NCBI GenBank assembly: GCA_964035575.1
Contig: OZ037833.1
Span: 1,364,001 to 1,428,000 of the forward strand
Length of the DNA stretch: 64,000 nucleotides
Direction of reading: 5' to 3'
DNA from: Rhynchopus sp. YZ270_cl-10
Lineage: Eukaryota
Of this stretch, positions 23,197 through 63,250 are shown in pieces. Numbering within the stretch: the stretch's first letter is position 1; the number at the start of each line of letters is the position of its first letter. The notes beneath the pieces were generated by a model, which worked only from the letters and a program-made list of their open reading frames with translations, searched no databases and was not told the DNA's origin. The position numbers and the translations under genes were made by a program.

Positions 23197-23268
23197 GCTC
23201 GCGTGGCGCAATGGAAGCGCGTCGGTTCCCGACGCCGGAGGTTGCGGGTTCGATCCCCGCCGCGAGTA
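23197..23268 (+). tRNA. tRNA-Arg(CCG), atypical anticodon loop TC-CCG-AC (C33)
   Basis: Cloverleaf GCTCGCG/CGCGAGT, A and B boxes, T-run after. Confidence 0.8.
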
Positions 23269-23405
23269 CTTTTTGTTCATTCCAAAATATTTTTAGATTT
23301 CCTCCTTCTCAGAGATTTCTTGTCACAAAACTTTGCCAAATTGAAAATTCAGAAATATGAAAATATCAAAAAACAGCTCCGAAATTTGAAAGCAATCAAA
23401 AAGGA

Positions 23406-23477
23406 TTCCCCCTCCGGGGTTTGAACCCGGGTCGCCTGGGTGAAAGCCAGGTATACTAACCACTGTACTAAAGGGGA
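23406..23477 (-). tRNA. tRNA-Glu(TTC)
   Basis: Cloverleaf, loop CT-TTC-AC. Confidence 0.95.
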
Positions 23478-23574
23478 GGTGATACTTAGGCACAATCCAA
23501 AAAGGGTACTTTTGTGCAAGCTACACGGAGTTTCAAACGAAAAAAAAATTAAAAATGAAAATCCAAAAAGACAA

Positions 23575-23646
23575 GGGCTCGGCGGGGAATTGAACCCCGG
23601 ACCTCTCGCACCCTAAGCGAGAATCATGCCACTAGACCACCGAGCC
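23575..23646 (-). tRNA. tRNA-Pro(AGG)
   Basis: Cloverleaf, loop TT-AGG-GT. Confidence 0.95.
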
Positions 23647-23760
23647 ACGAATTCTCTCGCATTCTCTTCGTAACGCGGCCATAAATTTCCATCATTCCTT
23701 GTGTGTGTTTTCGTTTTGAATAAGGTCCCCATGTAAATGCTGTCTTCGCTAACAATCAGA

Positions 23761-23833
23761 TCCTCCTTGGCGCAGTCGGTAGCGCGTCAGGCTGTTAACC
23801 TGCAGGTCGTTGGTTCGAACCCAACAGGAGGAG
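23761..23833 (+). tRNA. tRNA-Asn(GTT)
   Basis: Cloverleaf, loop CT-GTT-AA. Confidence 0.95.
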
Positions 23834-24204
23834 ATTTTTCATTTTTTTGAGTTTTTGACTCAAAAACATGGGCAAAATGCCTTTATACCCTATCTAAGCA
23901 ATTAGAATGTGCTCTAAAATGCAAAAATCTTGGGAATATGGGGTTTTTGGGCACATCTGAGTTCATTGCGGGGTCGTACGATCAGATCTGAGCATCACAT
24001 AATGTCTAGAATTTTACAGGTGCAACAAACACCTGTATTTTGGTGTAACATGCATATAACCATATCTGAATACCTTAAATTTGCACGAAAATGCAAAAAT
24101 CTTGGGAATATGGGTTTTTTGAGCACATCTGAGTCAATTGCGGGGTCGTACGGTCAGATCCGAGCATCACACACTGTCTAACTGAGAAATATTTTGAAAA
24201 AAGT

Positions 24205-25030
24205 CGATTTTTTGGTGAAAATATTTTTCACAGAAAATCGAATTTTACTATTAAGATTGGCTTTGGGCATGACCCAGTAAGGTTACTATGGGCCCCATGG
24301 GACATATACACCCGAATACCAGGCCGTATTTTCAAAAAGTTGATAATCCCAGTATATGGTATGGCCCTGTGGTACGAAATTTTTGGCCGAAAAAATCGAC
24401 CAAAAAATCGTCATTTTTGGGGGTCACGGTGACAAAAAGTTGCATTTTTTCACGAAAAATGGTCGGAATGTGACTTGAATGGGCTCTAATGGGTATCGAC
24501 ATAATTTAGGTATATTATGCACATAACATACCTAAATTATGTCGATATTTCACCGGCGGAGCCGAAAAAATCGATTTTCAGGGTGTGCAAAACTGTAAAA
24601 ATGACGAAAATCGGAAAAATGACGATTTTTTGGTGAAAATATTTTTCACAGAAAATCGAATTTTACTATTAAGATTGGCTTTGGGCATGACCCAGTAAGG
24701 TTACTATGGGCCCCATGGGACATATACACCCGAATACCAGGCCGTATTTTCAAAAAGTTGATAATCCCAGTATATGGTATGGCCCTGTGGTACGAAATTT
24801 TTGGCCGAAAAAATCGACCAAAAAATCGTCATTTTTGGGGGTCACGGTGACAAAAAGTTGCATTTTTTCACGAAAAATGGTCGGAATGTGACTTGAATGG
24901 GCTCTAATGGGTATATTATGCACATAACATACCTAAATTATGTCGATATTTCACCGGCGGAGCCGAAAAAATCGATTTTCAGGGTGTGCAAAACTGTAAA
25001 AATCACCAAAATCCCAAAAATCACGATTTT
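24205..25030. repeat. ~401-418-bp tandem repeat, 2 copies (4 copies at 42960-44550)
   Basis: Identical MGPMGHIH ORFs spaced 418 bp here and 401 bp in the partner. Confidence 0.95.
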
Positions 25031-28000
25031 TTTTCAAAAATATTTTTTTCAAAAAAATCGATTTTAAAATATTGGTTTGGCTTGTGCGGGGACCTGAATC
25101 TGGGGCAACATACCCTGTGGGACATACTGGGCCCGATGCAAGGCCGATTTTTCAAAAATATGGTTGCCCCGGTAGACGGTATGGCCCTGCAGGTCAGTGC
25201 ATCGGGCCAAAAATCATGAAAAAATCATGATTTTGGGGACTGGCACCCCATGGGCACATATATCTGGGGGTGTGAAATATGCATGGAATCGACCGATTGG
25301 GGGTGTTATAGGTCCTGGGGGCCCACATGGGCCATATTTCACGCTATTGGGTCACGGGAAAGTGATTTTGACATTTTTTCATCGATTTTAGCTGTGAGAA
25401 CCCTTCAAAAACACTGATTTTGGGGTGTTTCTGAGACGGTACGCTATACCCAGGGTCATATTAGGTATTAGTCCGGTCGACTTTTTGAAAAAACGACCCC
25501 GCAATGGACTCAGGGGTGCCAGATAGTGTATATGCACCAGAATGGATTCACGGGAAAAGTCAAAATTGGGTGTCAGATACATGCTGCCATAAGTGACGAA
25601 TTTCAAAAGTTGAGATTTTTCGAAAATCAGGGTTCAGTACACGCTGTACCCAATCCTGGGGGCCAAAATTTTCAACTTTTTGAAAAAACGGGCGGTATAT
25701 GGCCCTAAAGTGTCAAAATGAGTTAATTGCGACCTCGGACGGCCTCCGGAGATGAGTAGAAGTTTATTTACTGAAAAAAAAAGTCAAAACACAGGCAAAA
25801 TCCCACCTTCCACAGGTACAGTCAAAACTTTTATCCAGATCTCATGTTTTTTCAAAAAATTTTAAATTGTTTTTATGACTAACACCTCCGAAATTTTTCC
25901 TGATAAGATGGAATATGGTCCTGTCGTAGTATGCAGTGTGTTTGCAGGCAAAAATTTGCATTTTCTCGCCCCAGACATTTTTTTATACATAAAAGTGCAT
26001 AAAGGGACCCCTGACCCCAAAATCCGGGTTCCAGCTTTTTGAAGGGGTCACCCTACAGGCCACCTCAAAAAGTTGGCCCGTAGGGCCAGCTTTTTGAAAA
26101 AACGGGGTTGCGATGTGTCCTGGGGGCCCGAAGGGCCCCCAGGACACATCGCTGGGAAAAAAATATTAGGTTTTTGGGGGTCTATATAGGGTTGCTGTGG
26201 GGGTCACATGGCCGAAAAATGGCCATTTTTGGCCTATTTTTGGCCATTTTTTTAAGGTAAAAAATCCACTTTTTTTTTGTACATCCCCTTGCCCCCGGTA
26301 AAATTTACCAAACATATGGCCCTGTTGGACATACTGGGCCCATGAGTCGGTCGCTGGATCACCAAACTAGTTGCCCTATTTGCTAAAATCATGTTTTCAG
26401 GGTCAAAAATAGGGTGTTTTTTAGGGTCAAAAATAGGGTGTTTTTCAGGGGTATGTTAACCACGTATGTGTCTTAGGGACCAAATTTTCCAGGAATGTGA
26501 ACCAATCGGGTCGCAATGGGTCCAGGGGGCCCGGAGGGCCCCCATGCAGGGAAAATTTGCAACAATCCTGGGCAATGCTGGGGGCCGATAGGGTGTGCCT
26601 ATACACGTGTTTTTACGTGTTTTTGGGCACTTTTCAGGATTTTCGAAAATTTTTGCAACACCAAAATCAAAAATTTCGGTCTAGGAGGCCCATATCTGGA
26701 AAAAATCGATATTCCAATGGCCTCATTGGGACATATTGGGCCCAGGACCCTATTTTCAGGTCCCAGGAAAAGCCAAACCAATAAAAAAAATAGCTCAGGC
26801 GACCCCCAAAAATAGGCGAAAAACAGCCATTTTTAGGGTGTTTTTTAGGGGTATTTTTACACACACAAATTGTTTACCATAGCACACCCCCAGGCTGCCT
26901 CAAAATTTTATCTTTATTTGATTTTTCCAACCCACATAGGGGTATTGGAGGCACAACTTTCACCAAGCCTGGGGAATGCGGCACTGCACACACACAACTG
27001 AAAAAGGCAAAAATCACCTGTTTTTCAAGGTGTCGCAGGGTAAATGTTGTTCCTTAAAAACCAAATTTTTTCTAAAAAATCGGCCCTGCGGGTAAAAAAA
27101 CGACACTATGGGGGGTATTCCAGGGTGTGGGGGCCCCAAAAATCCGGTTTAAGACCACGAGAGGGTCCGAATACACACCTGAGAAGGTCCCGGGGAGTAA
27201 AAAAATGGCCATTTTTGGGGGGTCAAAATCTCACTTTTTGGGGGGATGTTTGTATACCCAGTACCGACCCACTAGCTGGAATGCCCAACTTTTCGCGAAT
27301 ATGGGGGCCCGTAGGGCCCCCGGGGCCCAGGGGGCCCAAAATATCGTGTTGCAGATGCCAGGAGAACATGTTTCAATATTTTGGATACATTTTTCCATAG
27401 GGTCATTTTCAAAAGCACTGATTTTAGGGGTATTGAGCGAGGTACCCATACCCATGGGTTATCCTATATATTAGTTTTCACTCGGATGTGAAAAAACGAT
27501 GTCGCAATGGATTCAGGGGGCCCAAATAGGGTATATGGCCCAGGAAATTTTCAAAAAGTTGACCCAACCAGGTATACAGGCATACAAGCCGGTAGGTCAA
27601 CAGATAGGGTGTTTTCCGCACCCAAAATATGGGGTCATGACCATGTGGGTCAGACCTGAATTGATAAATGTTTCGCACAGGTTTTCGCGAATACCCCCTC
27701 TATTCCGAATGCGCTACAAGAGTTTTAAATATTTGGCTATTTAGATTCACTTTTAAAAACAAAATGGGTCTCCAGAACACACATGAGGTTCACATGTACC
27801 TCTACAGAAACCTTGGTTTTGGTCGGATTTTGAGGCCAATTTTTGGGTTCCCACCAATTTCCTAGGGTATACTGGGATATTGCCCGTGTGTCCAAAAGTG
27901 ATTTTTGGGGCCTTAGGACCCCGGAGAATCCATTTAACGGTCGTTTTTGCACCGGAAAGACCTATCTAGTACCCAAAAATCGAATTTTCATATTTTTGAA

Positions 28001-28665
28001 AAAGTGACCAAAAATCGACTTTTTTTGGTAACATTGTATGGCATAAATTATTCTACATAATGTGTGATGCTTGAATAAAAACTTACGACCCCATAATGTA
28101 CTCGGAACTCACCCATGTAATTGTTGAGAAAAAAAAACTTTCCGAAAAAATGAAATTTCAACCCGAATATGCACATTTGGGTCATTTTACGGCTATGTAG
28201 GTCATTTTGTATGTGTTTTTCGATTATATAGGTGATTAGGATATGTGTGATGCTCAGATTAAATCGTAAGACCCCGCAATTGACTCAAATGTGCCCAAAA
28301 ACCCTATATACCCAAGATTATTAACTTTTCCAGCATATTGGACATCCTTAGGTATGGTTATAAGCCATGATACGGCTATTGCTGGAAAAATAGCCGTAAA
28401 TTGTGGTTGGTATTGATTTCAGAAATTATGTGATGCTTAGATCATGCCATAGACGCTTTTAATGGATTCATATGAGCTCATACTACCCATATACCCCTTC
28501 AGAAGCCCCTTTTGACTCTTATGAATATCCTTATATAGGCTTCCACTTGTGCAGAACCTTCTCAGTGTACAAGATGTTAGGTACAAAAAAACCATCATAT
28601 TTTTTACACTACTGGCATGCTTCCCAGGACACGTCTGTACTCAGAACGTTGTAGAGAAAAAAGGC

Positions 28666-28777
28666 AACCAACGATTTCTAAAGCTACAGTTTCTGTACTT
28701 CATTGGTATGGAAGCATGAAGATTATATCTTCTCACACAACTTTGTCAAACATGGCCAGTCTCGAAAGAGACTGGCC
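28666..28777 (+). ncRNA. Spliced-leader (SL) RNA gene
   Basis: 40-nt exon ending CAGTTTCTGTACTTCATTG, GTATG donor, AACTTTG Sm-like site, 3' GAAA hairpin, T-run. Confidence 0.95.
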
Positions 28778-29099
28778 TTTTTTACGTTAGCATGATCGTC
28801 TTGTGCACAAGAAGCAAACCCAAAAACACACACGATTCACACATGACATAACACACAAGTGCTTACTGCACCCCATTTTTATATCGCCTGCAAAACCATA
28901 TTTGTGACACTTGTTCCCCTTCAGAAGCCACTGTTGACTCTGTCGAATATCCTTCTGTAGGATCACACTTAAGGATATTTTTATGTAGAACCTTCACAGT
29001 GACCAAGATGTCAGGTACGAAAAAGCAACCGTATTATAGACATTGGCAGAAGGCTTCCCAGAACAAGTGGGTACCTAGAACATTGTAGAGAAAAAGGGC

Positions 29100-29211
29100 A
29101 ACCAACGATTTCTAAAGCTACAGTTTCTGTACTTCATTGGTATGGAAGCATGAAGATTATATTCTTCACACAACTTTGTCAAAACATGGCCAGTTTCGAA
29201 AGAGACTGGCC
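29100..29211 (+). ncRNA. SL RNA gene
   Basis: Same exon and intron structure. Confidence 0.95.
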
Positions 29212-29518
29212 TTTTTTACGTTAACATCACCTTGTGCAAACCCAAAAAACACACATGATTCCCATGTTCTTCGAATATTTTGGTGATTAGGATATGTGTA
29301 ATGCTCAGATTAAATTGTACGACCACGCAATTGACTCAAATGAGCCCAAATATCCCGTATTCCCAAGATTTTTGGACTTTCGAGCACATTGGGCATCCTT
29401 AGGTATGTTTATAAGCCACTCTACGGCTATGTTAGAAAAAAAACCCACCATAATAATGATACATATGGCATGATTCCCAGAACATGTTGGCACTTAGAAC
29501 ATTGTAGAGAAAAAGGGC

Positions 29519-29630
29519 AACCAACGATTTCTAAAGCTACAGTTTCTGTACTTCATTGGTATGGAAGCATGAAGATTATTCTTCTCACACAACTTTGTCA
29601 AAACATGGCCAGTTTCGAAAGAGACTGGCC
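29519..29630 (+). ncRNA. SL RNA gene
   Basis: Same exon and intron structure. Confidence 0.95.
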
Positions 29631-29712
29631 TTTTTTACGTTAACACGATCGTCTTGTGCACAAGAAGCAAAAAAACCCACACAACAACAGCAGAAGTTTA
29701 GAACCACATTCA

Positions 29713-29750
29713 GACCCTGACCCAACTCCAACAAGGGGCCCCTGTCTTGT
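29713..29750 (+). promoter_or_regulatory. Upstream element CTGACCCA(C/A)CTCCAACAAG...CCCTGTCTTGT (also 30292, 30881, 31602, 34066, 46547; minus strand ~60152-60191, ~62604-62640)
   Basis: CTGACCC lies 57-59 nt upstream of U6, SRP and both vault-like paralogues. Confidence 0.75.
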
Positions 29751-29773
29751 CAACCACCTTGTGCATATATACT

Positions 29774-29878
29774 GGACCCCAGAAATGGGACATCCGTTAA
29801 AATTGGATCGATACAGAGAAGATTAGCATGGTCCCTGCGCAAGGATGACACGCATTAATCGAGAAAGTATCAACTTTT
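29774..29878 (+). ncRNA. U6: U6 snRNA
   Basis: ATACAGAGAAGATTAGCATGG...GCGCAAGGATGACACGCA, 3' T-run. Confidence 0.97.
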
Positions 29879-30097
29879 TTTTTGTCCCCCGGATCACACG
29901 TATTTTTTACACTGGTGTCTTCTTCATGCTTCCCAGACCAACACATATGTGCAGACATGCCCATCACCCACAGGTGGCAAGTGGCAGGCTGCAGTAACCC
30001 ATTGAAATATTGGTTTCAAAAAACGACCATATGGTTTATGCTACTGGCATGCTTCCCTGAGCATATACATGTCGAAAGCTGTGTAGAGAAAAAGAGC

Positions 30098-30209
30098 AAC
30101 CAACGATTTCTAAAGCTACAGTTTCTGTACTTCATTGGTATGGAAGCATGAAGATTATTCTTCTCACACAACTTTGTCAAAACATGGCCAGTTTCGAAAG
30201 AGACTGGCC
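30098..30209 (+). ncRNA. SL RNA gene
   Basis: Same exon; part of the 579-bp SL-U6 tandem unit. Confidence 0.95.
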
Positions 30210-30352
30210 TTTTTTACGTTAACACGATCGTCTTGTGCACAAGAAGCAAAAAAACCCACACAACAACAGCAGAAGTTTAGAACCACATTCAGACCCTGAC
30301 CCAACTCCAACAAGGGGCCCCTGTCTTGTCAACCACCTTGTGCATATATACT

Positions 30353-30457
30353 GGACCCCAGAAATGGGACATCCGTTAAAATTGGATCGATACAGAGAAG
30401 ATTAGCATGGTCCCTGCGCAAGGATGACACGCATTAATCGAGAAAGTATCAACTTTT
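30353..30457 (+). ncRNA. U6: U6 snRNA, second copy
   Basis: Identical, 579 bp downstream. Confidence 0.97.
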
Positions 30458-30676
30458 TTTTTGTCCCCCGGATCACACGTATTTTTTACACTGGTGTCTT
30501 CTTCATGCTTCCCAGACCAACACATATGTGCAGACATGCCCATCACCCACAGGTGGCAAGTGGCAGGCTGCAGTAACCCATTGAAATATTGGTTTCAAAA
30601 AACGACCATATGGTTTATGCTACTGGCATGCTTCCCTGAGCATATACATGTCGAAAGCTGTGTAGAGAAAAAGAGC

Positions 30677-30788
30677 AACCAACGATTTCTAAAGCTACAG
30701 TTTCTGTACTTCATTGGTATGGAAGCATGAAGATTACTCTTCTCACACAACTTTGTCAAAACATGGCCGGTTTCGAAAGAGACTGGCC
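30677..30788 (+). ncRNA. SL RNA gene
   Basis: Same exon. Confidence 0.95.
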
Positions 30789-30942
30789 TTTTTTACGTTA
30801 GCATGATTGTCTTTGTGTGTCTTTGTGCAAAGCAAAAAAAAACACACACAAGAAGTGAGGATCTTCAAAACCACGTTTTTGACCTGACCCACCTCCAACT
30901 AGACAACCCTGTCTTGTATTCCGACAATATGGTATCTATTGA

Positions 30943-31252
30943 GCCGGGATGTGTTGGCTGCATCCTGAAACCCCTAGCTTCTGGGGGGGCAAGCTTCTCC
31001 AGAACTGGGCACTCTTTGAGGTGGACCAAAGGCACCTTCAACTTCTGTGTTGATGTGTTGTCCGTGTTAGTCTACTGTCCTGTTTGCGGCCTTGGTGTAA
31101 ACCAGGGCAACAATCAGAGTGAAATGGGGTGAACCGGGCCAGGCTGGTCTCACAGAGCAGCTCATAACTCCTGCAGTGGACAGTTCAAGGATCGCAGCAC
31201 AGAGCAGAGTGAGGGTGTTTCCAACTCAATGGCTTGAACTGGAGAAGCGTTT
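30943..31252 (+). ncRNA. SRP (7SL) RNA
   Basis: 5' GCCGGG Alu-like start; GGGGTGAACCGGGCCAGG...AGCAG helix 8; helix 6 GCCTTGGT-GTAA-ACCAGGGC; GCTTCTCCAG/CTGGAGAAGC closing helix; T-run. Confidence 0.88.
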
Positions 31253-31417
31253 CTTTTTTACATTTTTCCATGTGAACATTGTTTCCACATCACCATACAC
31301 ATGTGTTGTTGATACACCCCACCACGTTGCCCAGACCATTCCTACCCACATTATTCACCACAAGTGGCATGTTTACCAGTACATGTTGGTGCTTAGAGCA
31401 ATGTTAAGAAAAAGGGC

Positions 31418-31530
31418 AACCAACGATTTCTAAAGCTACAGTTTCTGTACTTCATTGGTATGGAAGCATGAAGATTATATTCTTCTCACACAACTTTGTC
31501 AAACATGGCCAGCCTCGAAAGAGACTGGCC
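31418..31530 (+). ncRNA. SL RNA gene
   Basis: Same exon. Confidence 0.95.
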
Positions 31531-31661
31531 TTTTTTACGTCACCATGAGAAAAAACATTCACACATATGATGCATGTACAAAGTGCACAGGTGTGTGTGT
31601 CACCCTGACCCACCTCCAACAAGACAACCCTGTCTTGTTTTCCCATACTCTCCCTATGTTT

Positions 31662-31983
31662 GGGTGCTAAGTTAGTGTGCTACTTCGAAACCAAACAACT
31701 CGTTCAGCAACAGCTAAAACTTGAAAAGACCTTTCTTATCAGAAAATTCTTTACAATTTTTATGATGTGTCCTGCTGTGGGCCTGATATGGCCCAAGGCG
31801 GAACCACTTTCATATGATGTAAATCCCGTACGTTCGTACAGAATATTACCCATGATGATTATTCTTACATTAGCGTGTAACACTAATTCTGACTGCGTTC
31901 TATTTCACACTTCAAATATTAGAACTGGATGTGGGGCTGCCAGTTTACTGGTGGTCCCGATCCAGCACACAACGCAAGCACCC
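31662..31983 (+). ncRNA. Unidentified ~320-nt structured RNA, vault-RNA-like
   Basis: U6-type upstream element; GGGTGCT/AGCACCC and GTGTGCT/AGCACAC terminal stems; TACTTCGA motif; T-run; diverged paralogue at 46608. Confidence 0.65.
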
Positions 31984-32101
31984 TTTTTTATATTACCCCA
32001 CCCAGTACCCCCCCTGTGTCTGTGTTGTTGCCTAAAAAAGCATCACCTTTTACAGGCTTCCTTGTGGGGAGTGTTCGGTCAAGTGATAGTGATGAAGAAG
32101 G

Positions 32102-32170
32102 ACAGGGGCGAGTTTTCTCGTGAAATGCTTTGAAGCCTCTGACATTGAGAGGCTCGCTCCGACCTCTGTT
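32102..32170 (+). ncRNA. Candidate ~70-nt structured small RNA
   Basis: GCTTCC element ~48 nt upstream; ACAGGGG/CCTCTGT closing stem with two hairpins; T-run. Confidence 0.3.
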
Positions 32171-32267
32171 TTTAATAACCCTTACCGGTAACCACTGTGT
32201 ATGTATGGTATGTATGGTATGTATGATATGTTGCCTTTGTGTGTTTGTTTTTGTTTTGTTAAAAAAG

Positions 32268-32456: not shown

Positions 32457-32606
32457 GACTTCTTTTTAGTCCATACCAAATTCGACACCCATGTACAGGG
32501 AAGCATGATGATGATCAATATTACTAGGAAACAACAAGGCAAACAGATTACACACCCATGTCACAGGGAAGTGAGCGAAGGTGATGATCAATCGTAGTAA
32601 AAACAA

Positions 32607-50699: not shown

Positions 50700-50748
<49 letters not shown>

Positions 50749-53689: not shown

Positions 53690-54844
53690 TTATCTTGTTT
53701 CCCAAGATCTCAGATTATGGAGAAGGTTTGGCAGTGTCTAAAAAAGTTCAAAAATTGATAAAACAGCCAGTGTCCCTTGGTGCATGACTGGTTGTACTGT
53801 GGTGGACCCGTGCACTTTCCATACAGTCCTATGCCAGAAAACCCACACACAATGGGTTTGTGGGTTTTCTACATCCACTGTACCTGTGCATAAGATAACC
53901 CATCGTGAAACTCCCTTGTGCACCCGACATACCACCCCTGGCCATATTGGTCAGGCATATTAGTAAGGGTACCTGGTCAGATCTGACCAGGCACCTGGTC
54001 ACAGTGACTGGGCACAGTAGGAACCACAGCTGAAATGGGTGGGGGCTTAAAGCCGTGTTCCAGCATGTGGTTCCTCTTTAGGTCCCAGCATGTAGTACAC
54101 CCGACATACCACAGCCCAGGCCATATTGGTAAGGCATATTAGTAGGGGCACCTGGTCACAGTGACTAGGTAGGTGCACAGAGTGGTTCCTAATCGGGCGC
54201 ACAGGGGGATATTCCTAATCGGGCGCACAGGGGGGTAAAGCTAACCGGGCGCACAGGGGGATTCCTAATCGGGCGCACAGGGGGTCGGCCCGCAAACCTG
54301 ATGATCATATTACCTCTGACCAGCGCACCGGCCATACTGACTTACATGTTTATTTACTGGGAATTTTGTGAAGAAATAAACATGTAAGTCAGGTTGGGTT
54401 TATGAACCTGTTGTAGTCCTAACCTGACTTACATGGTTATGAAAAACCTGACTTACATGGTTATTAACCCAGGGAATTTTGTGAACAAATAAACATGTAA
54501 GTCAGGTTTTTCATAAACACGTAAGTCAAGCCAAAAACATGTGGCCATACTGACTTACATGTTTATGAACTGGGATTTTTGTGAATAAATACACATGTAA
54601 GTCAGCATGGGTTTATAAACATGATCATCAAATTTTTTTTCGATTGTGACGGAAGTTGTGACTGAACTGACTTACCATGTCGAGCAAAAACCCGCATCAG
54701 ACAAAAAAAAAATTTCTCCACTAAGAATCCTTACGCAAGAAAGAGTACACATCATTTCCACTTTTTCGTTTTGAACGAGTTTGTGACCGACCTGAAACCG
54801 TCCGAAACCATATTGTTTTGCTTTTTCCAATCGCAAAAAGAGAG

Positions 54845-54915
54845 TGCGTAATCCGGGAATCGAACCCGGGCCGACCCCGTGGCGGGGGGCCATTCTACCA
54901 CTAGACCAATTACGC
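54845..54915 (-). tRNA. tRNA-Gly(GCC), C33
   Basis: GCCCC-CC-GCC-AC-GGGGT. Confidence 0.92.
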
Positions 54916-55031
54916 TACGATATTAGTCGAAATTGTGCTCGAGTTGCCGCTCGTTGCATGGTTGAAAAATATTTCACAATATCCCTCGAAATAAAACCCT
55001 TTCTGAGATCCCAATAAGTGGGAATATTCAA

Positions 55032-55103
55032 GCGGTTATGGTTTAGTGGTTAGAACACCCGTTTGTGGCACGGGAGACCCGAGTTCAATTCTCGGTAACC
55101 GCT
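55032..55103 (+). tRNA. tRNA-His(GTG), U73
   Basis: Loop TT-GTG-GC. Confidence 0.95.
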
Positions 55104-55191
55104 TTTTTAGCTGTACAATCAACCGTCTAAATTTTTTTTCAACTCCAAAAATATGCAGGCCACATAAAAAATACTATTGCCTAAAGACATG

Positions 55192-55263
55192 GACCGTGTG
55201 GCTCAATGGAAGAGCGCCTGACCACGGATCAGGCGGTTGCAGGTTCGAGTCCTGCCACGGTTG
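55192..55263 (+). tRNA. tRNA-Arg(ACG), C33
   Basis: Loop CC-ACG-GA. Confidence 0.93.
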
Positions 55264-55352
55264 CTTCTTTTTTTAGGCAATTTGAAGAATTTGAAATTAT
55301 TTTCATTTTGAAATCGCCCCTCACAAAGAAAACACTTTGCATGAAAGTAACA

Positions 55353-55424
55353 GCACTTATGGTATAACGGTTAGTATTCTCGCCTTCCAAGCGAGCGGCC
55401 CGGGTTCGACTCCCGGTAAGTGCA
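55353..55424 (+). tRNA. tRNA-Gly(TCC)
   Basis: Loop CT-TCC-AA. Confidence 0.95.
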
Positions 55425-55712
55425 GTTCTTTTTTTAAAGGGGGAAGCAAAATTTTCATGTTCAGAAAATTTTTTCTGAAATGTCAGCTTTTCAAAGAATT
55501 TCCAGTTTTCAAGTTTTTCCTTCAAAAATTTTTCAAGGTTCTTATGGGTGGGTTGACTACCAAAAAATCCAAAATCCCGGGGTGACCCCTTCCCACTGGA
55601 CCCAATGTTTTTATCTGTTGTGACTGTAACTTGTCACTGTAATTCATTTGACACCAACCTCTCACTTTTTTGTGTTTTCAAAAAAGTTCAAAAAAACAAT
55701 GTTCAAAAAGTT

Positions 55713-55785
55713 AACCCCGTGCGGGACTCGAACCCGCAACCTTTGGATTCGAAGTCCAACGCGCTATCCATTGCGCCAACGGGGC
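55713..55785 (-). tRNA. tRNA-Arg(TCG)
   Basis: Loop CT-TCG-AA. Confidence 0.95.
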
Positions 55786-55847
55786 CTGATTTGATTTTCA
55801 TCAGAAAAGAAACGAAACAATGAGTGGGAGCCCTGTACAAAAAAGAA

Positions 55848-55919
55848 TTCCCCGGCCGGGAATTGAACCCGGGTCTTCCGCGTGACAGGCGGAAATACTG
55901 ACCTCTATACTACCGAGGA
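55848..55919 (-). tRNA. tRNA-Asp(GTC), A73
   Basis: Same as 49421. Confidence 0.95.
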
Positions 55920-56018
55920 TACAATCTTCACTCTGATTTATTTTCGCGGATTAAAATGGTCTAAAATGAGCACAGAAATGACGAAAATGCATGAAAATTT
56001 GTGAACAAAAAAATGAAT

Positions 56019-56100
56019 CGCAGTCGGCAGGACTTGAACCTGCGCGGGCAGAGCCCAATGGATTTCTAGTCCACCTCCGTAACCACTTGGATACGACTGC
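56019..56100 (-). tRNA. tRNA-Ser(AGA)
   Basis: Loop CT-AGA-AA. Confidence 0.95.
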
Positions 56101-56178
56101 TGTAATTCTCACCGTTCTTTGTTTTTAGGCAGTCATCTGTTTGCAGAAAATAATCTGGAACACGAAAACGAAAAAAAA

Positions 56179-56262
56179 TCCTCTCGGCCGGAATCGAACC
56201 AGCGACCGCTCGATAACCGAGTATTCTACAGTCGAGCGCTCTACCAATTGAGCTACGAGAGG
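56179..56262 (-). tRNA. tRNA-Tyr(GTA) with an 11-nt intron
   Basis: C1:G72; CT-GTA-G then intron AATACTCGGTT. Confidence 0.93.
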
Positions 56263-56386
56263 TTCTACAACTGTCATTGTTTTCACAGAAGCCCATAAAA
56301 TTTTTTGGCTCAAAAAAATTTTTTTGCCACACAAACCTGTAGAAATTTGCACCCCATGTATTTCTTAATGATACGATAATATCAAG

Positions 56387-56459
56387 GCGAGGTTGGCGCA
56401 GTCGGGAGCGCGTAGGTCCCATAATCCTAAGGTCGTCAGTTCGATCCTGGCACCTCGCA
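56387..56459 (+). tRNA. tRNA-Met(CAT) elongator, C33
   Basis: Inverted copy of 37785. Confidence 0.93.
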
Positions 56460-56544
56460 CTTTTTTGTGTGTCTTTTTCCTTTGTGTGGGATTTTCAGCA
56501 AAATTTCCACCTTCATGCTAAACGCATTGAAGCCCTAAATCATG

Positions 56545-56615
56545 GGCCCTATGGTGTAGCGGTAGCACTATGGATTCCAAATCCATCAACGGCGGTTCGA
56601 TTCCGTCTAGGGTCA
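56545..56615 (+). tRNA. tRNA-Trp(CCA)
   Basis: Inverted copy of 37629. Confidence 0.88.
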
Positions 56616-56697
56616 TTTCTTTTTTTACACACTTTCCTTTCTGTGTTGTCTTGAAAAACTTCTTCGCAGGAGAAACAGCAAAAGCATCTTAATCAGC

Positions 56698-56769
56698 GGC
56701 GATTTAGCTCAGTGGCAGAGCATTGGTCTTGTAAACCAAGGGTCGGGGGTTCGATCCCCCCAGTTGCCT
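56698..56769 (+). tRNA. tRNA-Thr(TGT)
   Basis: Inverted copy of 37475. Confidence 0.95.
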
Positions 56770-57584
56770 TTCTATTTTTTGGTGATGTGATGTGATGTGG
56801 TTGTGCTGAAGAAGCAGCAACTGAGCACTGGATGTGACAGGCAGGAACGCAGAAGGGAGATGGCCTGGCCGTACTCCAGTACAGGCCCGAGCGAGTGCTC
56901 ACAGAATGGGCTCCAAAAACCAGCACAGAATGGAATGGCTGGAGACTTATAGGCTTACTGTAAGGATTTGTTAGGAGTGGAAAAAAAAACTCCTGACCCG
57001 GGTATTGAATTTTCAGATCATTTTCTCAGTCACAATGCAAGCACAGAATGGAAACGAAAAACCAGCACAGAATGGAATGGCTGGAGTCTTATAGCCGTGT
57101 TCCATTCTGTGCTTGGTTTTGGTTTCCATTCTGTGCTTGCATTGTGACTGAGAAAATGATCCGAAAATTCAATAGCCAGGTCAGGAGTTTTTCCATCTGA
57201 ATTATGGATTGCTAAGGATTTCCCAGCCATTCCATTCTGTGCTGGATTCCACCATTCTGTACTGGTGAGTCGCCAAGAAGCGGCAGCTGAGCACACTGGA
57301 CATGCCCAGAAAGGAGATAAGTTGTGGGGCTGAAACGTGCTATCCCCAGCAAAAGGGTCTGGCACTTTTCGCGAGTGGAAGCAGTTCACACCTGGTTGAA
57401 CGCAAAACCTACACCGGTCGGTGGGAGTCCTGTGTTGGTTCGGAAAACACATATTTTCACCCAAATTCCACTCTCAACTTGCCAACGAAACAGAACTGAG
57501 ATCAAGTGGAGGAAATATTTTTTGGTTTTCATTTGCCTCAAAATCTCAGAAACCTGCAAAATCGTAAACATTCAAAAAGAAAAG

Positions 57585-57657
57585 CACCTCCCGCGGGGCT
57601 CGAACCCGCGACCACAAGGTTAAGGGCCTTGCGCTCTACCGACTGAGCTAGGGAGGC
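57585..57657 (-). tRNA. tRNA-Lys(CTT), C33
   Basis: Inverted copy of 36605. Confidence 0.93.
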
Positions 57658-57765
57658 TCACATTCATTTAAACCAAAGAATCATTGTGGGGGGTGGTCAT
57701 GCAGAAAAGTCTCTTGTCCTAAATTTGACCACCCCAGAGAAAAGGAAAGAAGGTAAAACTATTAG

Positions 57766-57838
57766 GCCCGTGTAGCCCAATGGATAAGGCGTTCGCTTCC
57801 TAAGCGAAAGATTGTGGGTTCGATCCCCACCATGGGTA
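57766..57838 (+). tRNA. tRNA-Arg(CCT)
   Basis: Inverted copy of 36426. Confidence 0.95.
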
Positions 57839-58052
57839 TTCTCTTTTTCACTGGGAAGTGAAAATATGGAAAATGATTTTTCAAGATTCTCTCACCATCT
57901 TGGGATTTTGGTGACAACAAAGATATGGCAAAATACTTTCACAAAAATGCACTTTTCCAAACTTCCTCATCTTGGGATTTTGGTGGTCGAAAAGATGTGG
58001 AAATAATTTTTCTAAACAATTCCCAAGCAAGAAACTACCTAAATAAAAAGAG

Positions 58053-58124
58053 GGGCTCAGCAGGGAATCGAACCCTGGACCTCTCGCACCCGAAGCGAGA
58101 ATCATGCCACTAGACCACTAAGCC
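58053..58124 (-). tRNA. tRNA-Pro(CGG)
   Basis: Inverted copy of 36140. Confidence 0.95.
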
Positions 58125-58218
58125 ACTGATTATTTTCTTCATCCAGATTTACATGATGGCGTTAATATTCAAAAGTCAGAAATTCTTCTCTCCAAAACTT
58201 GGTCTAAAAAAAGGTATT

Positions 58219-58290
58219 TTCCGCTGCGGGGAATTGAACCCCGGTCTGCCGGGTGAGAGCCGGCTGTTCTAACCACTATACTACAGCGGA
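58219..58290 (-). tRNA. tRNA-Glu(CTC)
   Basis: Inverted copy of 35974. Confidence 0.95.
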
Positions 58291-58380
58291 TCTGATAGTA
58301 GGCAAAACTATTATCTGCATGGGGACATCTTTTCGATCGTTGCATTGAACGAAAATGTGAAGGAAAGTTCAAAAAGAAAT

Positions 58381-58453
58381 TACAGCTAGTCGGGATTGAA
58401 CCGACGATCTCTCGCGTGTGAGGCGAGCGTCCTAACCACTAGACGATAGCTGC
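58381..58453 (-). tRNA. tRNA-Val(CAC)
   Basis: Inverted copy of 35811. Confidence 0.95.
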
Positions 58454-58517
58454 TACAATAATGACCGGAACTGTTTTCCACAAGAGGTGGGTTTTCTGCG
58501 GAAAAATGGTAATAACG

Positions 58518-58599
58518 TGACGAGAGTGGGGTTTGAACCCACGCCTCCGAAGAGACCAGGGCCTAAACCTGGCGCCTTAGACCGCTCGGCCATCTCGCC
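58518..58599 (-). tRNA. tRNA-Leu(TAG)
   Basis: Inverted copy of 35665. Confidence 0.95.
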
Positions 58600-58658
58600 T
58601 TCCCAGTTTTTTCTGACTTTTGCAAAGAACAGAAAATGGTTTGAGAAGGGAAAAAAGT

Positions 58659-58731
58659 CTCCTCCTGTTGGGTTCGAACCAACGACCTGCAGGTTAACAG
58701 CCTGACGCGCTACCGACTGCGCCAAGGAGGA
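58659..58731 (-). tRNA. tRNA-Asn(GTT)
   Basis: Inverted copy of 35533. Confidence 0.95.
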
Positions 58732-58820
58732 CCTGACAAGTGTGCTTTTTGTGTTTTGCACAATCTTGAAAACAAAACAAAAGGGATAGATTGAAAATGA
58801 AAATGAAAAAGAATAACAAG

Positions 58821-58902
58821 TGACGAGAGTGGGGTTTGAACCCACGCCCCCGAAGGGACCAGGGCCTTAACCTGGCGCCTTAGACCACTCGGCCATCTCG
58901 CC
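58821..58902 (-). tRNA. tRNA-Leu(AAG)
   Basis: Inverted copy of 35362. Confidence 0.95.
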
Positions 58903-58995
58903 TTCAATAAAAGCCAACAAGAATATGGAAGTGGGAATGCGTTTCAACCAGTCACAGAGGAGAATAACAAGGGACGAAACGGAGAAAAAGGAAAG

Positions 58996-59067
58996 TTCTC
59001 CTACGCGGATTCGAACCGCGGTCGCGAGATTCAGAGTCTCGAGTGCTAACCACTACACCATAGGAGA
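58996..59067 (-). tRNA. tRNA-Gln(CTG)
   Basis: Inverted copy of 35197. Confidence 0.95.
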
Positions 59068-59158
59068 TACAATTCTGTCGCTTCCTTCTTTTTCTTTGGT
59101 ACCAAAAAGAATTGAGATCTGGAAATATCACAACAGTGTTTCCAAGCCAAAAAATGTT

Positions 59159-59231
59159 TGGAGATTGAGGGTATCGATCCCTCTACCTCTCGCATGCTGA
59201 GCGAGCGCTCTACCATTTGAGCTAAACCCCC
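59159..59231 (-). tRNA. tRNA-Ala(AGC), C33
   Basis: Inverted copy of 35033. Confidence 0.93.
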
Positions 59232-59325
59232 TTACATTTCTTAAACGAATCTTTACAAGGTGGGGATGAAATTCAAAACCAAAAGGGGAAAAGTAACACA
59301 CAGAAAATCTTGAAACAAAAAAGAG

Positions 59326-59397
59326 AGGGCACACCCGGGTTCGAACCAGGGACCGTTCGGACTGCAGCCGAATGCTCTACCACTGAGCTATATACCC
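59326..59397 (-). tRNA. tRNA-Cys(GCA)
   Basis: Inverted copy of 34860. Confidence 0.95.
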
Positions 59398-59480
59398 TTC
59401 AATAATCATGCTTTGCGCTGAATACTATCAGTTCACTTTTCAACCAACTTCTGTGTGTTACACCACAAATAAGGAAAAAA

Positions 59481-59599
59481 GGATTCAAGCACCCGGACTT
59501 CCCAGCTGGTCACCCACGCCAGTACTATCCAGGCCTGCTGGTGCTTAACTTCTCAAATCAGGCGGGATGAGGTGTATTCACCAGAGTATGGCCGAATCC
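59481..59599 (-). rRNA. 5S rRNA
   Basis: Inverted copy of 34658. Confidence 0.97.
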
Positions 59600-60235
59600 A
59601 ATAATGGGTCTGGGTGGAAAACCTTTGAAGAGCTTTATATTTCTGAGCTTGTTTTTGCTTCACTTGTGCAAAAGGTCTTGGGTGTTGCATGGTACAGGAA
59701 ACTTTATTTGTCTCCCCTGTTCCGCTGCACTCTGCATTAGGTCATTTCACCTAAAATAAGGCCAGTTTGCGATCTTCTTGGAGTATCTTGGTGTCCAGTA
59801 CAGTGTTTCTGGCATTGTGGACTTGCATGTTGTACAGGGCAACTGCCTGGGAATTAGTCCCACTTCTTGCAACAGTTTAGCTATTTCGGCATCCCCAGCG
59901 CGCATGATATTAAGCACAGGAGAATTTTTGGCTGCAGGTGCGCACGTCCCTTCTGGGGAGTATGGATGCCTCTTCCTCAGTTTTTGTTGTGCATTTTTGC
60001 ACCTTTGCGCTCATCTCCATCTCACCAAAGGTGAAATTGTGAATGCTGTCATGCAGCATTCACATTCCAGCATGCTCCTGTAGGCTGAAGCACCGTCGGT
60101 GGTGTAGTCTCCCCTCATTTCTGCTCTCTGGATAGTGCAACAAACACAGGGATACAAGACAGGGTTGTCTTGTTGGAGGTGGGTCAGGGTCTGGATGTCC
60201 TAAAACCACACACCAACACGGAAGAAAAGCAAAAA

Positions 60236-60354
60236 GGATTCAAGCACCCGGACTTCCCAGCTGGTCACCCACGCCAGTACTATCCAGGCCTGCTGGTGCT
60301 TAACTTCTCAAATCAGGCGGGATGAGGTGCATTCACCAGAGTATGGCCGAATCC
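60236..60354 (-). rRNA. 5S rRNA (one substitution)
   Basis: Inverted copy of 33903. Confidence 0.97.
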
Positions 60355-60639
60355 AATACTGAGTCAGGTTCGAAAACCTTTGAAGAGCTTTTTATTTCTG
60401 AGCTTGTTTTTGCTTCGGTTGTGAAAACCGGTTTGTGGGTCAGCAGGTTTAACAAGTTTGGCCAGTCCTTAGCACAGCACTTAGTGCGCTGCACTACTGC
60501 ATCGGAGCAGGTGCCTGTGTGCTCACAGGTCACCACTCAGTGGTCGATCCCTCTAGACCAGTGTGCTGGGTTTACTGGGTTTACTGGGTAACATGATGGT
60601 TTGTGTGATCACGTTTGTTTTGGTTTGTTTGTTTAAAAA

Positions 60640-60798
60640 GGCGGGTTTGTGCAAAGCACAGCACCGCCGCTGTCAAAAATTTCACTGTGCAAGCCAGCCG
60701 AAGCTAGTGCCACCAGTATCCCCTGCGCAGTGCAATGCAAGGGCCACTGGTGTGTCGACGCCCTTGTTGATCAGGTCAGACACCAGTAAGGTATGTAA
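60640..60798 (-). ncRNA. U1: U1 snRNA
   Basis: Inverted copy of 33459. Confidence 0.92.
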
Positions 60799-60876
60799 CC
60801 TCTAGCTGAGTTTAACAACATGCGAAACTCCAACACCTTCAGGGAAGCGTAGTGGTTGTCAAGACTTAAAAACAGA

Positions 60877-60985
60877 TGAGACACAAAGGCCCCTTCAAAA
60901 ATTATGCTTTCACATAGTGGCTCTTACCCACGGTCATCTTTAGTAAAAGGCGAAAGATGAGTTCGATATGGGCAAGAACCGTGAT
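60877..60985 (-). ncRNA. U5: U5 snRNA
   Basis: Inverted copy of 33272. Confidence 0.95.
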
Positions 60986-61137
60986 ATGGCTCTGTTTTGT
61001 TCTATTGCTGTGTGCACTTTGCTACACATGGAAGCATGTTGAGAGCGAGGATAGTGTGGTAACTTCTTGATTGATCAAGATGTCCTTGAAGGTGAAAAAA
61101 GTAATGTGAAGCCTTTTTTGAGGTTTTTCTTAAAAAC

Positions 61138-61347
61138 AAGCTGTAAGTGGAAGGGCTGTGCCTGGTACTCTTCCCTGCGCCATACAGGGGAGAGACAAAA
61201 CAATACAAGAAGTATGTGACAATCATCGCAAGTGCTCATGCTGCACATGCCCAACCTATGTCATCATCCAGCTTTGGTCTTGTGCCGAAGAAAACAATCT
61301 TCAACACGAATGCACTCAAAAACAGATCCTGTGTAGAGTACAGTCTT
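61138..61347 (-). ncRNA. U3: U3 snoRNA
   Basis: Inverted copy of 32910. Confidence 0.88.
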
Positions 61348-61508
61348 GCCCTTGTTTGTTCCACCTATCGGCTGCACAGATGTCTATAGGGAGGCACATT
61401 GGCGGTGGTAGTTTTGGTGTGTTAACTTTACGTGGTGTCTATATGTTACCACCCCAACACACTTCCCTGTGGACATAGCTTTGTGACACGACTGGGAGAA
61501 AAGGAGGT

Positions 61509-61650
61509 ATTCTTGCGCTCGGGATAATTCCATAAGCAATGACCAAATAGGGACGCTGTGGAGAGATTGCTGGTTGAAAACTACCCAATTCCCGCCATGG
61601 GCCGCTTCGGCGTTGCCACATTGGCAATTTGTGTAGCTGCTTCGGCGGCC
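61509..61650 (+). ncRNA. U4: U4 snRNA
   Basis: Inverted copy of 32607. Confidence 0.92.
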
Positions 61651-61803
61651 TTGTTTTTACTAATAAGATTGATCATCACCTTCACTTACTTCCCTGTGAC
61701 ATGGGTGTGTAATCTGCTTGCCTTGTTGTTTCCTAGTAATATTGATCATAATCATGCTTCCCTGTACATGGGTGTCGAATTCGGTATGGACTAAAAAGAA
61801 GTC

Positions 61804-61992
61804 ATACCTTCTCGGCCTTTTGGCTAAGATCAAGTGTATTATCTGTTCTTATCAGCTTAATATCTGATACAGTGCCTTGTGCACTGATGATATTAACGCA
61901 ATTTCTCATTGGGGTGACGGGTCGCCAGGGCAACCTGGTCCGTTCACACATGTTGCCCTGGAGCTGCACAACATCCAGGAGTGGCATACCCT
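61804..61992 (+). ncRNA. U2: U2 snRNA
   Basis: Inverted copy of 32268. Confidence 0.97.
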
Positions 61993-62255
61993 CTTTTTTA
62001 ACAAAACAAAAACAAACATACCATACATACCATACATACACAGTGGTTACCACTGTGATGTGGGTTATTAAAAACAGAGGTCGGAGCGAGCCTCTCAATG
62101 TCAGAGGCTTCAAAGCATTTCACGAGAAAACTCGCCCCTGTCCTTCTTCATCACTATCACTTGACCGAACACTCCCTGCAAGGAAGCCTGTAAAAGGCGA
62201 TGCTTAGGCAACAACACAGACACAGGGGGGGTGCTGGGTGGGAAAATATAAAAAA

Positions 62256-62580
62256 GGGTGCTTGCGTTGTGTGCTGGATCGGGACCACCAGTAAACTGGC
62301 AGCCCCACATCCAGTTCTAATATTTGAAGTGTGAAATAGAACGCAGTCAGAATTAGTGTTACACGCTAATGTAAGAATAATCATCATGGGTAATATTCTG
62401 TACGAACGTACGGGATTTACATCATATGAAAGTAGTTCCGCCTTGGGCCATATCAGGCCCAACAGCAGGACCGCATCATAAAAATTGTAAAGAATTTTCT
62501 TAAATAGAAAGGTCTTTTCAAGTTTTAGCTGTTGCTGAACGAGTTGTTTGGTTTCGAAGTAGCACACTAACTTAGCACCC
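62256..62580 (-). ncRNA. Vault-RNA-like RNA, third variant
   Basis: Inverted, slightly diverged copy of 31662. Confidence 0.65.
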
Positions 62581-62701
62581 AAACATAGGGAGAGTATGGG
62601 AAAACAAGACAGGGTTGTCTTGTTGGAGGTGGGTCAGGGTGACACACACTTTGTACATGCATCATATGTGTGAATGTTTTTTCTCATGGTGACGTAAAAA
62701 A

Positions 62702-62814
62702 GGCCAGTCTCTTTCGAGGCTGGCCATGTTTGACAAAGTTGTGTGAGAAGAATATAATCTTCATGCTTCCATACCAATGAAGTACAGAAACTGTAGCTTT
62801 AGAAATCGTTGGTT
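62702..62814 (-). ncRNA. SL RNA gene
   Basis: Same exon. Confidence 0.95.
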
Positions 62815-63137
62815 GCCCTTTTTCTCTACAATGTTCTAGGTACCCACTTGTTCTGGGAAGCCTTCTGCCAATGTCTATAATACGGTTGCTTTTTCGTACC
62901 TGACATCTTGGTCACTGTGAAGGTTCTACATAAAAATATCCTTAAGTGTGATCCTACAGAAGGATATTCGACAGAGTCAACAGTGGCTTCTGAAGGGGAA
63001 CAAGTGTCACAAATATGGTTTTGCAGGCGATATAAAAATGGGGTGCAGTAAGCACTTGTGCATTAGGTCAGGTGTGAATTGGGTGTGTTTTTGGGTTTGC
63101 TTCTTGTGCACAAAGACAATCGTGCTAACGTAAAAAA

Positions 63138-63250
63138 GGCCAGTCTCTTTCGAGGCTGGCCATGTTTGACAAAGTTGTGTGAGAAGAATATAATCTTCAT
63201 GCTTCCATACCAATGAAGTACAGAAACTGTAGCTTTAGAAATCGTTGGTT
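63138..63250 (-). ncRNA. SL RNA gene
   Basis: Same exon. Confidence 0.95.

Follow-up and report, generated by a model that had tools for sequence, protein, structure and literature searches.

A 64,000-nucleotide stretch of contig OZ037833.1 from Rhynchopus sp. YZ270_cl-10 (assembly GCA_964035575.1, positions 1,364,001 to 1,428,000 of the forward strand; hereafter the window) carries a dense block of small-RNA genes, in which about one gene for each transfer RNA type is combined with genes for the spliced leader (SL) RNA, 5S ribosomal RNA, the U1-U6 small nuclear RNAs (snRNAs), U3, the signal recognition particle (SRP) RNA and a conserved RNA named here X1. We consider it probable that this block, 24-26 kb in length, is repeated as the unit of a multi-copy array, one that would be reshaped by unequal recombination and whose unit number would set the dosage of most of the small stable RNAs together. 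In the window the block is represented by diverged partial copies which follow the same circular order and include hybrid SL genes; the window probably samples a rearranged margin of the array, next to a satellite.

Gene content of the island

Sixty-six tRNA genes were found with ARAGORN between 23197 and 59397, the same number that had been given in a first-pass annotation of this DNA, and Rfam agrees. A core of 12.3 kb at 47059-59397 holds 48 of them (21 on the plus strand, 27 on the minus strand), at a density of 3.9 genes per kb and together with one 5S gene (47715). With introns allowed, the core contains 44 anticodons and the initiator Met, or 45 of the 46 standard eukaryotic types, as the first-pass annotation had also proposed; Leu(TAA) is the sole standard type absent, and no type except Asp(GTC), Lys(CTT) and Asn(GTT) occurs twice. 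The tRNA-Tyr(GTA) gene (56179-56262, minus strand) has an 11-nt intron and is called Ser if introns are disallowed. If 48 genes were picked at random from 46 types of equal probability, a naive null, about 30 types would be expected, and the probability of reaching at least 45 is 1.7e-14, leading to the conclusion that the core is a one-of-each tRNA set and not a pile of duplicates. No candidate for tRNA-Sec or Leu(TAA) was found in the window, low-threshold ARAGORN output being noise. Since tRNA-Leu(UAA) was reported to be missing genome-wide in Diplonema papillatum as well (PMC10161547), the core set is likely complete for the group, tRNA-Sec apart.

Above the Rfam gathering score there are six 5S genes, two genes each for U2, U4, U5 and U6, and one SRP RNA gene. 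The two U1 genes are just under the cut-off (68 bits vs 69.5, E ~4e-15) and 89-91% conserved in relatives, and the two U3 genes are well under it (35 bits vs 80, E ~4e-6). A search with the SL exon gave 12 identical exons, of which 11 belong to whole genes and one, at 38017 on the minus strand, lacks the 3' end. All the RNA classes that had been named (5S, SL, U1, U2, U4, U5, U6, U3 and SRP RNA) are present, as are the copy numbers that had been given for 5S and SL, one SL gene being truncated and U1 and U3 scoring below threshold. Self-comparison revealed that much of the window's gene count is due to duplication within the window. No match to 18S, 5.8S or 28S ribosomal RNA was obtained in the window with Rfam, and the SL, 5S and U2 genes share one block without ribosomal DNA (rDNA), as in the SL-5S-U2 type of D. 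papillatum.

The absence of protein genes, likewise claimed before, was borne out for genes not split by introns, the only kind considered: each of the nine open reading frames of at least 120 aa in 23197-63250 lies across an RNA gene, a repeat or a spacer, and Pfam returned nothing significant among the six island reading frames scanned. The island also includes two repeat spacers, 4.8 and 7.1 kb long, that contain no genes. When eight spacer stretches were folded, their z-scores ranged from +0.3 to -1.9, compared with -5.7 for an SL control, and spacer hairpins are not supported as RNA genes. At 46269-46334 (minus strand) a decayed 5S fragment is followed by a tRNA-like stretch (46104-46334 overall) with a T-arm-like end, no valid cloverleaf and a z-score of -1.9; these are perhaps pseudogenes. 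The small-RNA block probably extends beyond the right edge of the window.

Several features are shared with diplonemids. Among published SL sequences is an entry labelled 'Euglenozoa 14', which we take to be Diplonema. The SL exon of the window has three differences from this entry (PMC3795323). U2 is of full length, covering 192 of 192 positions of the Rfam model. The 5' end of U1 (33459-33475) is unlike the usual one and matches, as its complement, both the SL donor region and G/GTATG donors, and the same end is found in two relatives described below (at 1092 in L001 and 2286 in L002); the G/GTATG donor has been reported for three Diplonemidae (PMC12621601). Judged from these sequence features, the SL exon, U2, the U1 end, the linkage of 5S to SL instead of rDNA and the absence of Leu(UAA) likely fit diplonemid nuclear DNA.

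Repeat structure and competing explanations

The repeat period was obtained by self-comparison, in which 38744-40055 recurs directly at 62686-64000, giving a period of 23,942 bp. The interval so delimited (38744-62685) is a near-complete unit of about 60 genes. Read from 38744, it consists of SL genes, a 7-kb repeat spacer, a 5S gene, a diverged second type of X1 (X1b), and the 48 core tRNA genes, arranged as core1 tRNAs, a four-tRNA segment, core2 tRNAs and the first part of a 6.5-kb segment. This last segment contains 14 tRNAs, two 5S genes, U1, U5, U3, U4, U2 and X1 (X1c), bringing the unit, with the 5S gene of the core, to three 5S genes besides the one preceding X1b; SL genes and spacer then come again at 62686. 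To the left, at 22073-37920, lies an inverted and circularly permuted copy with 18 tRNA genes, six SL genes, two U6 genes, SRP RNA, X1, U2, U4, U3, U5, U1 and two 5S genes, from which core1, some 7.3 kb, and core2, some 1.8 kb, are missing. Both U6 genes and the SRP gene are found in this left copy only. Followed along the minus strand, the left copy leads from the 6.5-kb segment through the SL genes and spacer into the four-tRNA segment, an order that is expected from a head-to-tail (or circular) source.

The copies have diverged in a manner that argues for their being real, since the differences between them are mostly in spacers. The two copies of the 6.5-kb segment are separated by 42 substitutions, 29 of them transitions; named genes make up 34% of the segment and hold only two of the 42 substitutions (p = 7e-6), or six if X1 is counted (p = 5e-4). 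One spacer is present in three copies, which differ by 1, 10 and 11 substitutions. Hybrid SL genes point to unequal recombination. In the SL gene at 62814, upstream flanking sequence of the 29100 type is combined with downstream flanking sequence of the 31418 type, which belongs to a gene five genes further on, and the join removes exactly the U6-U6-SRP segment; the SL gene at 38452 is a second hybrid, in which a module has been doubled. A repeated unit had been raised as one possibility in the first-pass annotation, and the direct period, the circular order shared by the inverted copy, the three spacer copies and the hybrid SL genes, along with the head-to-tail unit of a relative, now support it.

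Relatives were found by an SL pattern search of public contigs; viral contigs gave no SL match. L001, a metagenome contig of 2.4 kb whose SL exon is identical to that of the window, carries SRP RNA, U3, U5, U1, U2, U4 and SL genes in unrelated spacers. In L002 an 8.59-kb unit with six SL genes, U5, U1, U3, U4, SRP RNA, U2, U6, X1 and two 5S genes is repeated 2.3 times head-to-tail, and this unit and rearranged variants of it are carried by L002, L005 and L007. The more distant L008 (58% GC, 5S 79% identical) has U5, SRP RNA, U6, SL, 5S and 10 tRNA calls in 2.6 kb. L002, L005 and L007 (CBDCEV010000009.1, ...067.1 and ...076.1) and L008 (NZ_JABSOU010000224.1) are eukaryotic contaminants in two bacterial metagenome-assembled genomes that serve as species representatives. 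Comparison with these independent assemblies shows similar small-RNA clusters, making misassembly an unlikely source of the clustering, and the clusters of L001, L002 and L008 show that clustering is a trait of the lineage, in which gene order is fluid and the inclusion of tRNA genes varies.

Copies elsewhere were traced through public marker records. Gene callers have made spurious protein clusters of 50-240 aa (P0001-P0030) from these RNA genes and spacers, and such calls over block DNA served as markers. The SL-SRP segment is represented by 11 entries and 38 contig records, all near-identical, the longest contigs of the entries being nine different ones, 0.36-1.96 Mb in size; the Tyr-Ser segment by six entries and 18 contig records on contigs of up to 1.20 Mb; the X2 segment, described below, by six variants and 30 contig records, the longest being 74 kb; the Arg-Gly spacer by eight contig records; and the Phe-Ile segment of core1 by a cluster of seven sequences and a singleton. 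A longer protein search over core1 gave one unrelated tRNA-Phe frame only. Diplonemid chromosomes were reported to measure 0.5-1.8 Mb, in line with the sizes of the marker contigs, and the D. papillatum genome to contain about 3600 scattered 28S pieces and nuclear copies of mitochondrial DNA (PMC10161547). The simplest reading of the records would be a multi-copy block that assembles poorly and has shed pieces to many chromosomes, like the 28S pieces of D. papillatum. The earlier proposal of one dedicated locus is made doubtful by near-identical pieces on at least nine contigs of 0.36-1.96 Mb and by the broken state of the two core-marker representatives examined.

A number of observations weigh against an amplified unit of this composition. 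The second tandem copy is visible for 1.3 kb only, with no two complete units in a row, so that the array itself is something we infer, and no single copy here has everything, the right unit being without U6 and SRP RNA and the left without most tRNAs. The markers are spurious protein calls, and their records are not equivalent to copies and may recur across assemblies of one organism; 17 of 20 exact marker look-ups were empty, which is uninformative. The two Phe-Ile representatives mentioned (on contigs of 1.42 Mb and 0.78 Mb) break off within tRNA genes and continue as rearranged DNA. Among the relatives, L002, L005 and L007 are without tRNA genes, and no tRNA cluster was found in the bin of L002 among the candidates scored (150/308; 40/155), where other eukaryotic contigs may be another organism's; a unit that combines tRNA genes with the other small-RNA genes is therefore not shared by the whole group. 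D. papillatum is described as having the SL-5S-U2 unit and 211 tRNA genes (PMC10161547).

The alternative that survives best is a low-copy cluster at a single locus, in which a local inverted segmental duplication occurred once or twice, the marker records stand for repeated assemblies of the same organism and for dead fragments, and unit number does not set dosage. Under this explanation it would be natural that the window has one complete tRNA core only, that the fragments on long contigs are rearranged, that contig records are not assignable to assemblies, and that short-read drafts of two diplonemids gave just three and two U1 copies (PMC12621601). We nevertheless regard it as rather unlikely, as it would have to account for the unchanged circular order of the inverted copy, for a third copy of the spacer that falls on the 23.9-kb period, for several sequence variants of each marker and for a true tandem unit in L002, and as one or two SL/U2/5S clusters would be far under the 110 SL and 163 U2 genes counted in D. 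papillatum (PMC10161547).

It could also be argued that the assembler fused high-copy repeats that are in truth separate (tRNA clusters, satellites and an snRNA-SL-5S unit like that of L002) through identical SL, 5S or tRNA sequences, in an order that is not real in the cell. The hybrid SL joins do resemble a repeat-induced misjoin, and the X2-bearing contigs all measure 74 kb or less, as for a hard-to-assemble repeat. Non-repetitive spacers, however, join the tRNA genes, substitutions between copies avoid genes, and the inversion junction contains bases found in neither parent segment, such as an overlap join would not leave behind. In addition, five contig records carry one of the two longest forms of a marker that spans the join of Met, Tyr and Ser, four of them with a different sequence variant, and the independent assemblies of relatives share the same kinds of linkage. 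Such an artefact appears improbable to us.

The ribosomal DNA of Euglena is an extrachromosomal circle, and the unit described here might be, or be amplified as, a circle of about 25 kb, chromosomal copies and fragments having been captured at DNA breaks. There is little chance that this is so, for while circular permutation suits a circle as well as a tandem array, the broken pieces on megabase contigs resemble the scattered 28S pieces and mitochondrial inserts of D. papillatum (PMC10161547), and the unit of a relative ended up in a bacterial genome bin, as may happen to high-coverage DNA, the block is joined to a 14.9-kb satellite and further non-unit DNA, its copies are diverged, inverted and deleted instead of uniform, and its markers occur on contigs of up to 1.96 Mb.

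Returning to the multi-copy array, its history may be pictured as follows. A compact one-of-each gene set would have been gathered and then amplified as a unit, and the block would continue head-to-tail outside the window. Recombination between identical SL genes, and also between 5S genes, would add or remove modules; in this way SL-SL recombination may have deleted U6-U6-SRP from the right copy and doubled the SL and SL-U6 modules. Selection would preserve the genes while the spacers drift. The number of units would set the overall supply, extra demand perhaps being satisfied by doubling within the unit, as for SL, 5S, Asp, Asn and Lys(CTT), and broken pieces would be shed to other chromosomes. 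A further-reaching form of this reading, which we put forward only tentatively, holds that the entire working small-RNA gene set of the lineage might reside in one cassette of about 25 kb, amplified like rDNA with a single copy number, that genes outside it might mostly be broken captures, and that X1 might be either a new class of RNA or a strongly remodelled RNase MRP or telomerase RNA.

Upstream elements, X1, X2 and repeats

Among the core tRNA genes the strand switches at 18 of 47 neighbour pairs, and in all 66 tRNA genes a run of four T lies within 25 nt downstream. Mixed strands and a T run behind every tRNA gene argue for separate transcription units and not for an operon. A 9-nt motif was found 47-48 nt upstream of five SL types, U2, U3, U4 and U5 (nine of 10 genes) and 52 nt upstream of U1 as delimited. 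Five snRNA matches at one offset would have a probability of about 3e-13 from the background rate, a figure that is overstated as the test was post hoc. A different element of 36-40 nt precedes U6, SRP RNA, X1 and X2, and the relative L002 has other sequences in the same two classes (U1, U2, U3, U4 and U5 as against U6, SRP RNA and X1). The two motif classes are likely promoters, and the U6/SRP/X1 element is likely a gene-external promoter of polymerase III. Copies of the SL/snRNA motif at 29928 and 30507 are orphans, with no recognisable gene 48 nt downstream. In trypanosomatids tRNA genes are arranged upstream of U6, U3 and SRP RNA genes. Transcription of U6, U3 and 7SL RNA is described there as depending on these neighbours (bioRxiv 10.1101/2023.12.15.571829), whereas here the nearest tRNA genes to U6, U3 and SRP RNA are more than 1.7 kb away and these genes have their own shared upstream elements.

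Of the unknown RNAs that had been noted in the first-pass annotation, X1 is supported as an RNA gene and X2 is not. X1 is present in three copies of 325-330 nt in the window, of which X1a (31662-31983, plus strand) is a conserved structured RNA of about 325 nt with a U6/SRP-type upstream element and a T-run end. It folds far better than its shuffles (z -5.9 and -7.4, and -4.0 for the copy of L002), and its homologue in the L002 unit was detected at E 8e-16. A long terminal helix is kept, and five of 37 consensus pairs are changed on both sides, a comparison of two species only. No Rfam match was obtained at E<=5, and the X1 sequence profile had no match in L001 or L008.

RNase MRP RNA is the obvious gap in the block's RNA kit, and MRP RNA has reportedly been seen in Diplonema. 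The U6-type upstream element of X1, a length of 270-340 nt and a terminal helix followed by a T run are as expected of RNase MRP or RNase P RNA. When compared with the MRP/P motifs set out in PMC13184271, none of six copies had a GARAG-type motif or a conserved CR-I; a conserved 6-bp complementarity nests similarly to the MRP/P pseudoknot, but its spacing is wrong. The element shared with U6 and SRP RNA and the T-rich end also recall telomerase RNA with a type-3 promoter (PMC8287931). By the method outlined there, no template for standard 6- or 7-mer telomere repeats or for the window's satellites was found in six of six copies, the host telomere repeat not being known, and only a 5-nt periodicity was seen. 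A divergent RNase MRP or P RNA is a tentative assignment for X1 and telomerase RNA an unlikely one, and the chances seem evenly balanced that X1 is something other than these.

X2 (about 34128-34500, plus strand) lies between two 5S genes and keeps a U6-type upstream element. It was rejected for now as an RNA gene, having no homologue in five related loci and a fold z of -1.7. Its reading by eye as a transposase fragment was rejected as well; Pfam gave nothing, and a protein atlas gave a weak match (score 0.93, recognition 2153 < 2300, with DUF8422 on 19-23% of members). A profile search with X2 matched only spurious gene calls over X2 itself and two chance-like matches. X2 occupies the position of X1 behind the homologous 5S gene, suggesting a likely insertion that displaced an X1 copy, and it is probably inserted spacer debris.

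The layout of the left copy, which starts 70 bp past the 8-mer satellite, is as follows. Four tRNA genes, Arg(CCG), Glu(TTC), Pro(AGG) and Asn(GTT), at 23197-23833 are an inverted copy of 53025-54284; at the deletion junction at 23861 this segment is joined to a copy of 45765, core1 having been deleted there. The gene-free spacer at 23834-28665 consists of 172-bp and 401-bp repeats and is an inverted copy of part of 38284-45765; marker copies of the 401-bp repeat number two in the left unit (24196-25189) and four in the right unit (42905-44560), a length variant as in rDNA spacers. Six SL genes on the plus strand (28666, 29100, 29519, 30098, 30677 and 31418, within 28666-31525) are interleaved with U6 (29775 and 30354, plus strand), whose SL-U6 module is duplicated with a 579-bp period, and with the SRP gene (30943-31250, plus strand). 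U2 and U4 on the minus strand and U3, U5 and U1 on the plus strand follow at 32266-33617, then 5S, X2 and 5S at 33903-34777 (plus strand) and 14 tRNA genes at 34860-37857, an inverted copy of 56387-59397. At the inversion junction (37900-37950) the join to a truncated SL gene is bridged by 3.9 copies of an 8-mer that neither parent segment contains, perhaps a repair insertion. In the right unit, 5S and X1b (46608-46937) occupy 46379-46937 on the plus strand, and two 5S genes, an X2 copy, U1 (60640-60798), U5, U3 (61138-61347), U4, U2 and X1c lie at 59480-62580. The further copy that starts at 62686 (62686-64000, minus strand) has the hybrid SL gene at 62814, an SL gene at 63250 and spacer.

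The perfect 8-mer satellite at 7152-22003 (14,852 bp) has 1856 copies with no mismatch and its C-rich strand on the plus strand; this orientation is as in a left telomere, yet 7 kb of other DNA lies on its left, including two 7-mer satellites (657-1167 and 4148-4420). An inverted repeat with 93-bp arms (94%) and a 14-26-nt motif lies between tRNA-Lys and tRNA-Thr at 37052-37259 and 56985-57248, and a similar nested palindrome is found at 54330-54610 and 22070-22250. Both look like small non-autonomous elements.

Comparison with known systems and significance

The closest published system is the SL RNA-5S rRNA-U2 snRNA tandem unit of D. papillatum, which was termed exceptional and apparently absent in other diplonemids; the main text of that report is silent on the arrangement of the 211 tRNA genes (PMC10161547). 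As in D. papillatum, SL, 5S and U2 are linked apart from rDNA, Leu(UAA) is missing and the SL genes are of similar size. The D. papillatum unit has three genes, compared with about 60 of all small-RNA classes here and nine RNA types in L002. Trypanosomatid tRNA genes are described as lying in clusters of 2-10 genes at about 40 loci, mostly in single copy and with no SL (bioRxiv 10.1101/2023.12.15.571829), and Leishmania tarentolae has a 2.7-kb cluster of U3, 10 tRNA genes, U1 and 5S (PMC2784804). Such clusters share with the block mixed strands, varied tRNAs in company with snRNA, U3, SRP RNA and sometimes 5S, and an intron solely in tRNA-Tyr, but here 48 tRNA genes fall within 12.3 kb and segments are duplicated. 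In Euglena gracilis U3 and U5 are linked and convergent (PMC2784804); U3 lies directly upstream of U5 here as well, though on the same strand, as also in L001, while the order in L002 differs.

Tandem units of small-RNA genes are known outside the Euglenozoa. Entamoeba has 25 separate tRNA arrays of one to five types each with short tandem repeats between the genes, and such arrays can include 5S and an unassigned RNA of about 200 nt (PMC2652664); unlike these, the present unit has 45 types, and most of its core spacers are short and without a tandem repeat. The 3.18-kb tandem unit of eight tRNA genes in Xenopus and the 5S-snRNA linkages of fish and oyster (PMC1635290, PMC2652664) are similar in that different small-RNA genes are co-amplified as one tandem unit, and differ in having few types only, beside dispersed genes. 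No published unit with a whole tRNA set was found in a literature search, most subscription papers and some supplements being outside its reach. The block is an extreme form of linked small-RNA repeat, going beyond any such unit we found described, and by its size and content it belongs to none of the systems above.

Nuclear tRNA genes are usually scattered or in small groups, and the largest mixed units that we found described hold 5-10 tRNA types. If the block is indeed amplified as a unit, tRNA supply would be nearly independent of codon use, bar the three doubled genes. The clusters contradict published work in which multi-gene SL units are regarded as a peculiarity of D. papillatum, and the tRNA set of the block supports the loss of Leu(UAA) as being wider than one species. 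X1 adds a conserved unassigned RNA for which homologues are at hand. The putative gene-external upstream elements of U6 and SRP RNA in a euglenozoan may prove useful as promoters, genetic tools being scarce in this group, and may bear on the history of transcription in trypanosomes.

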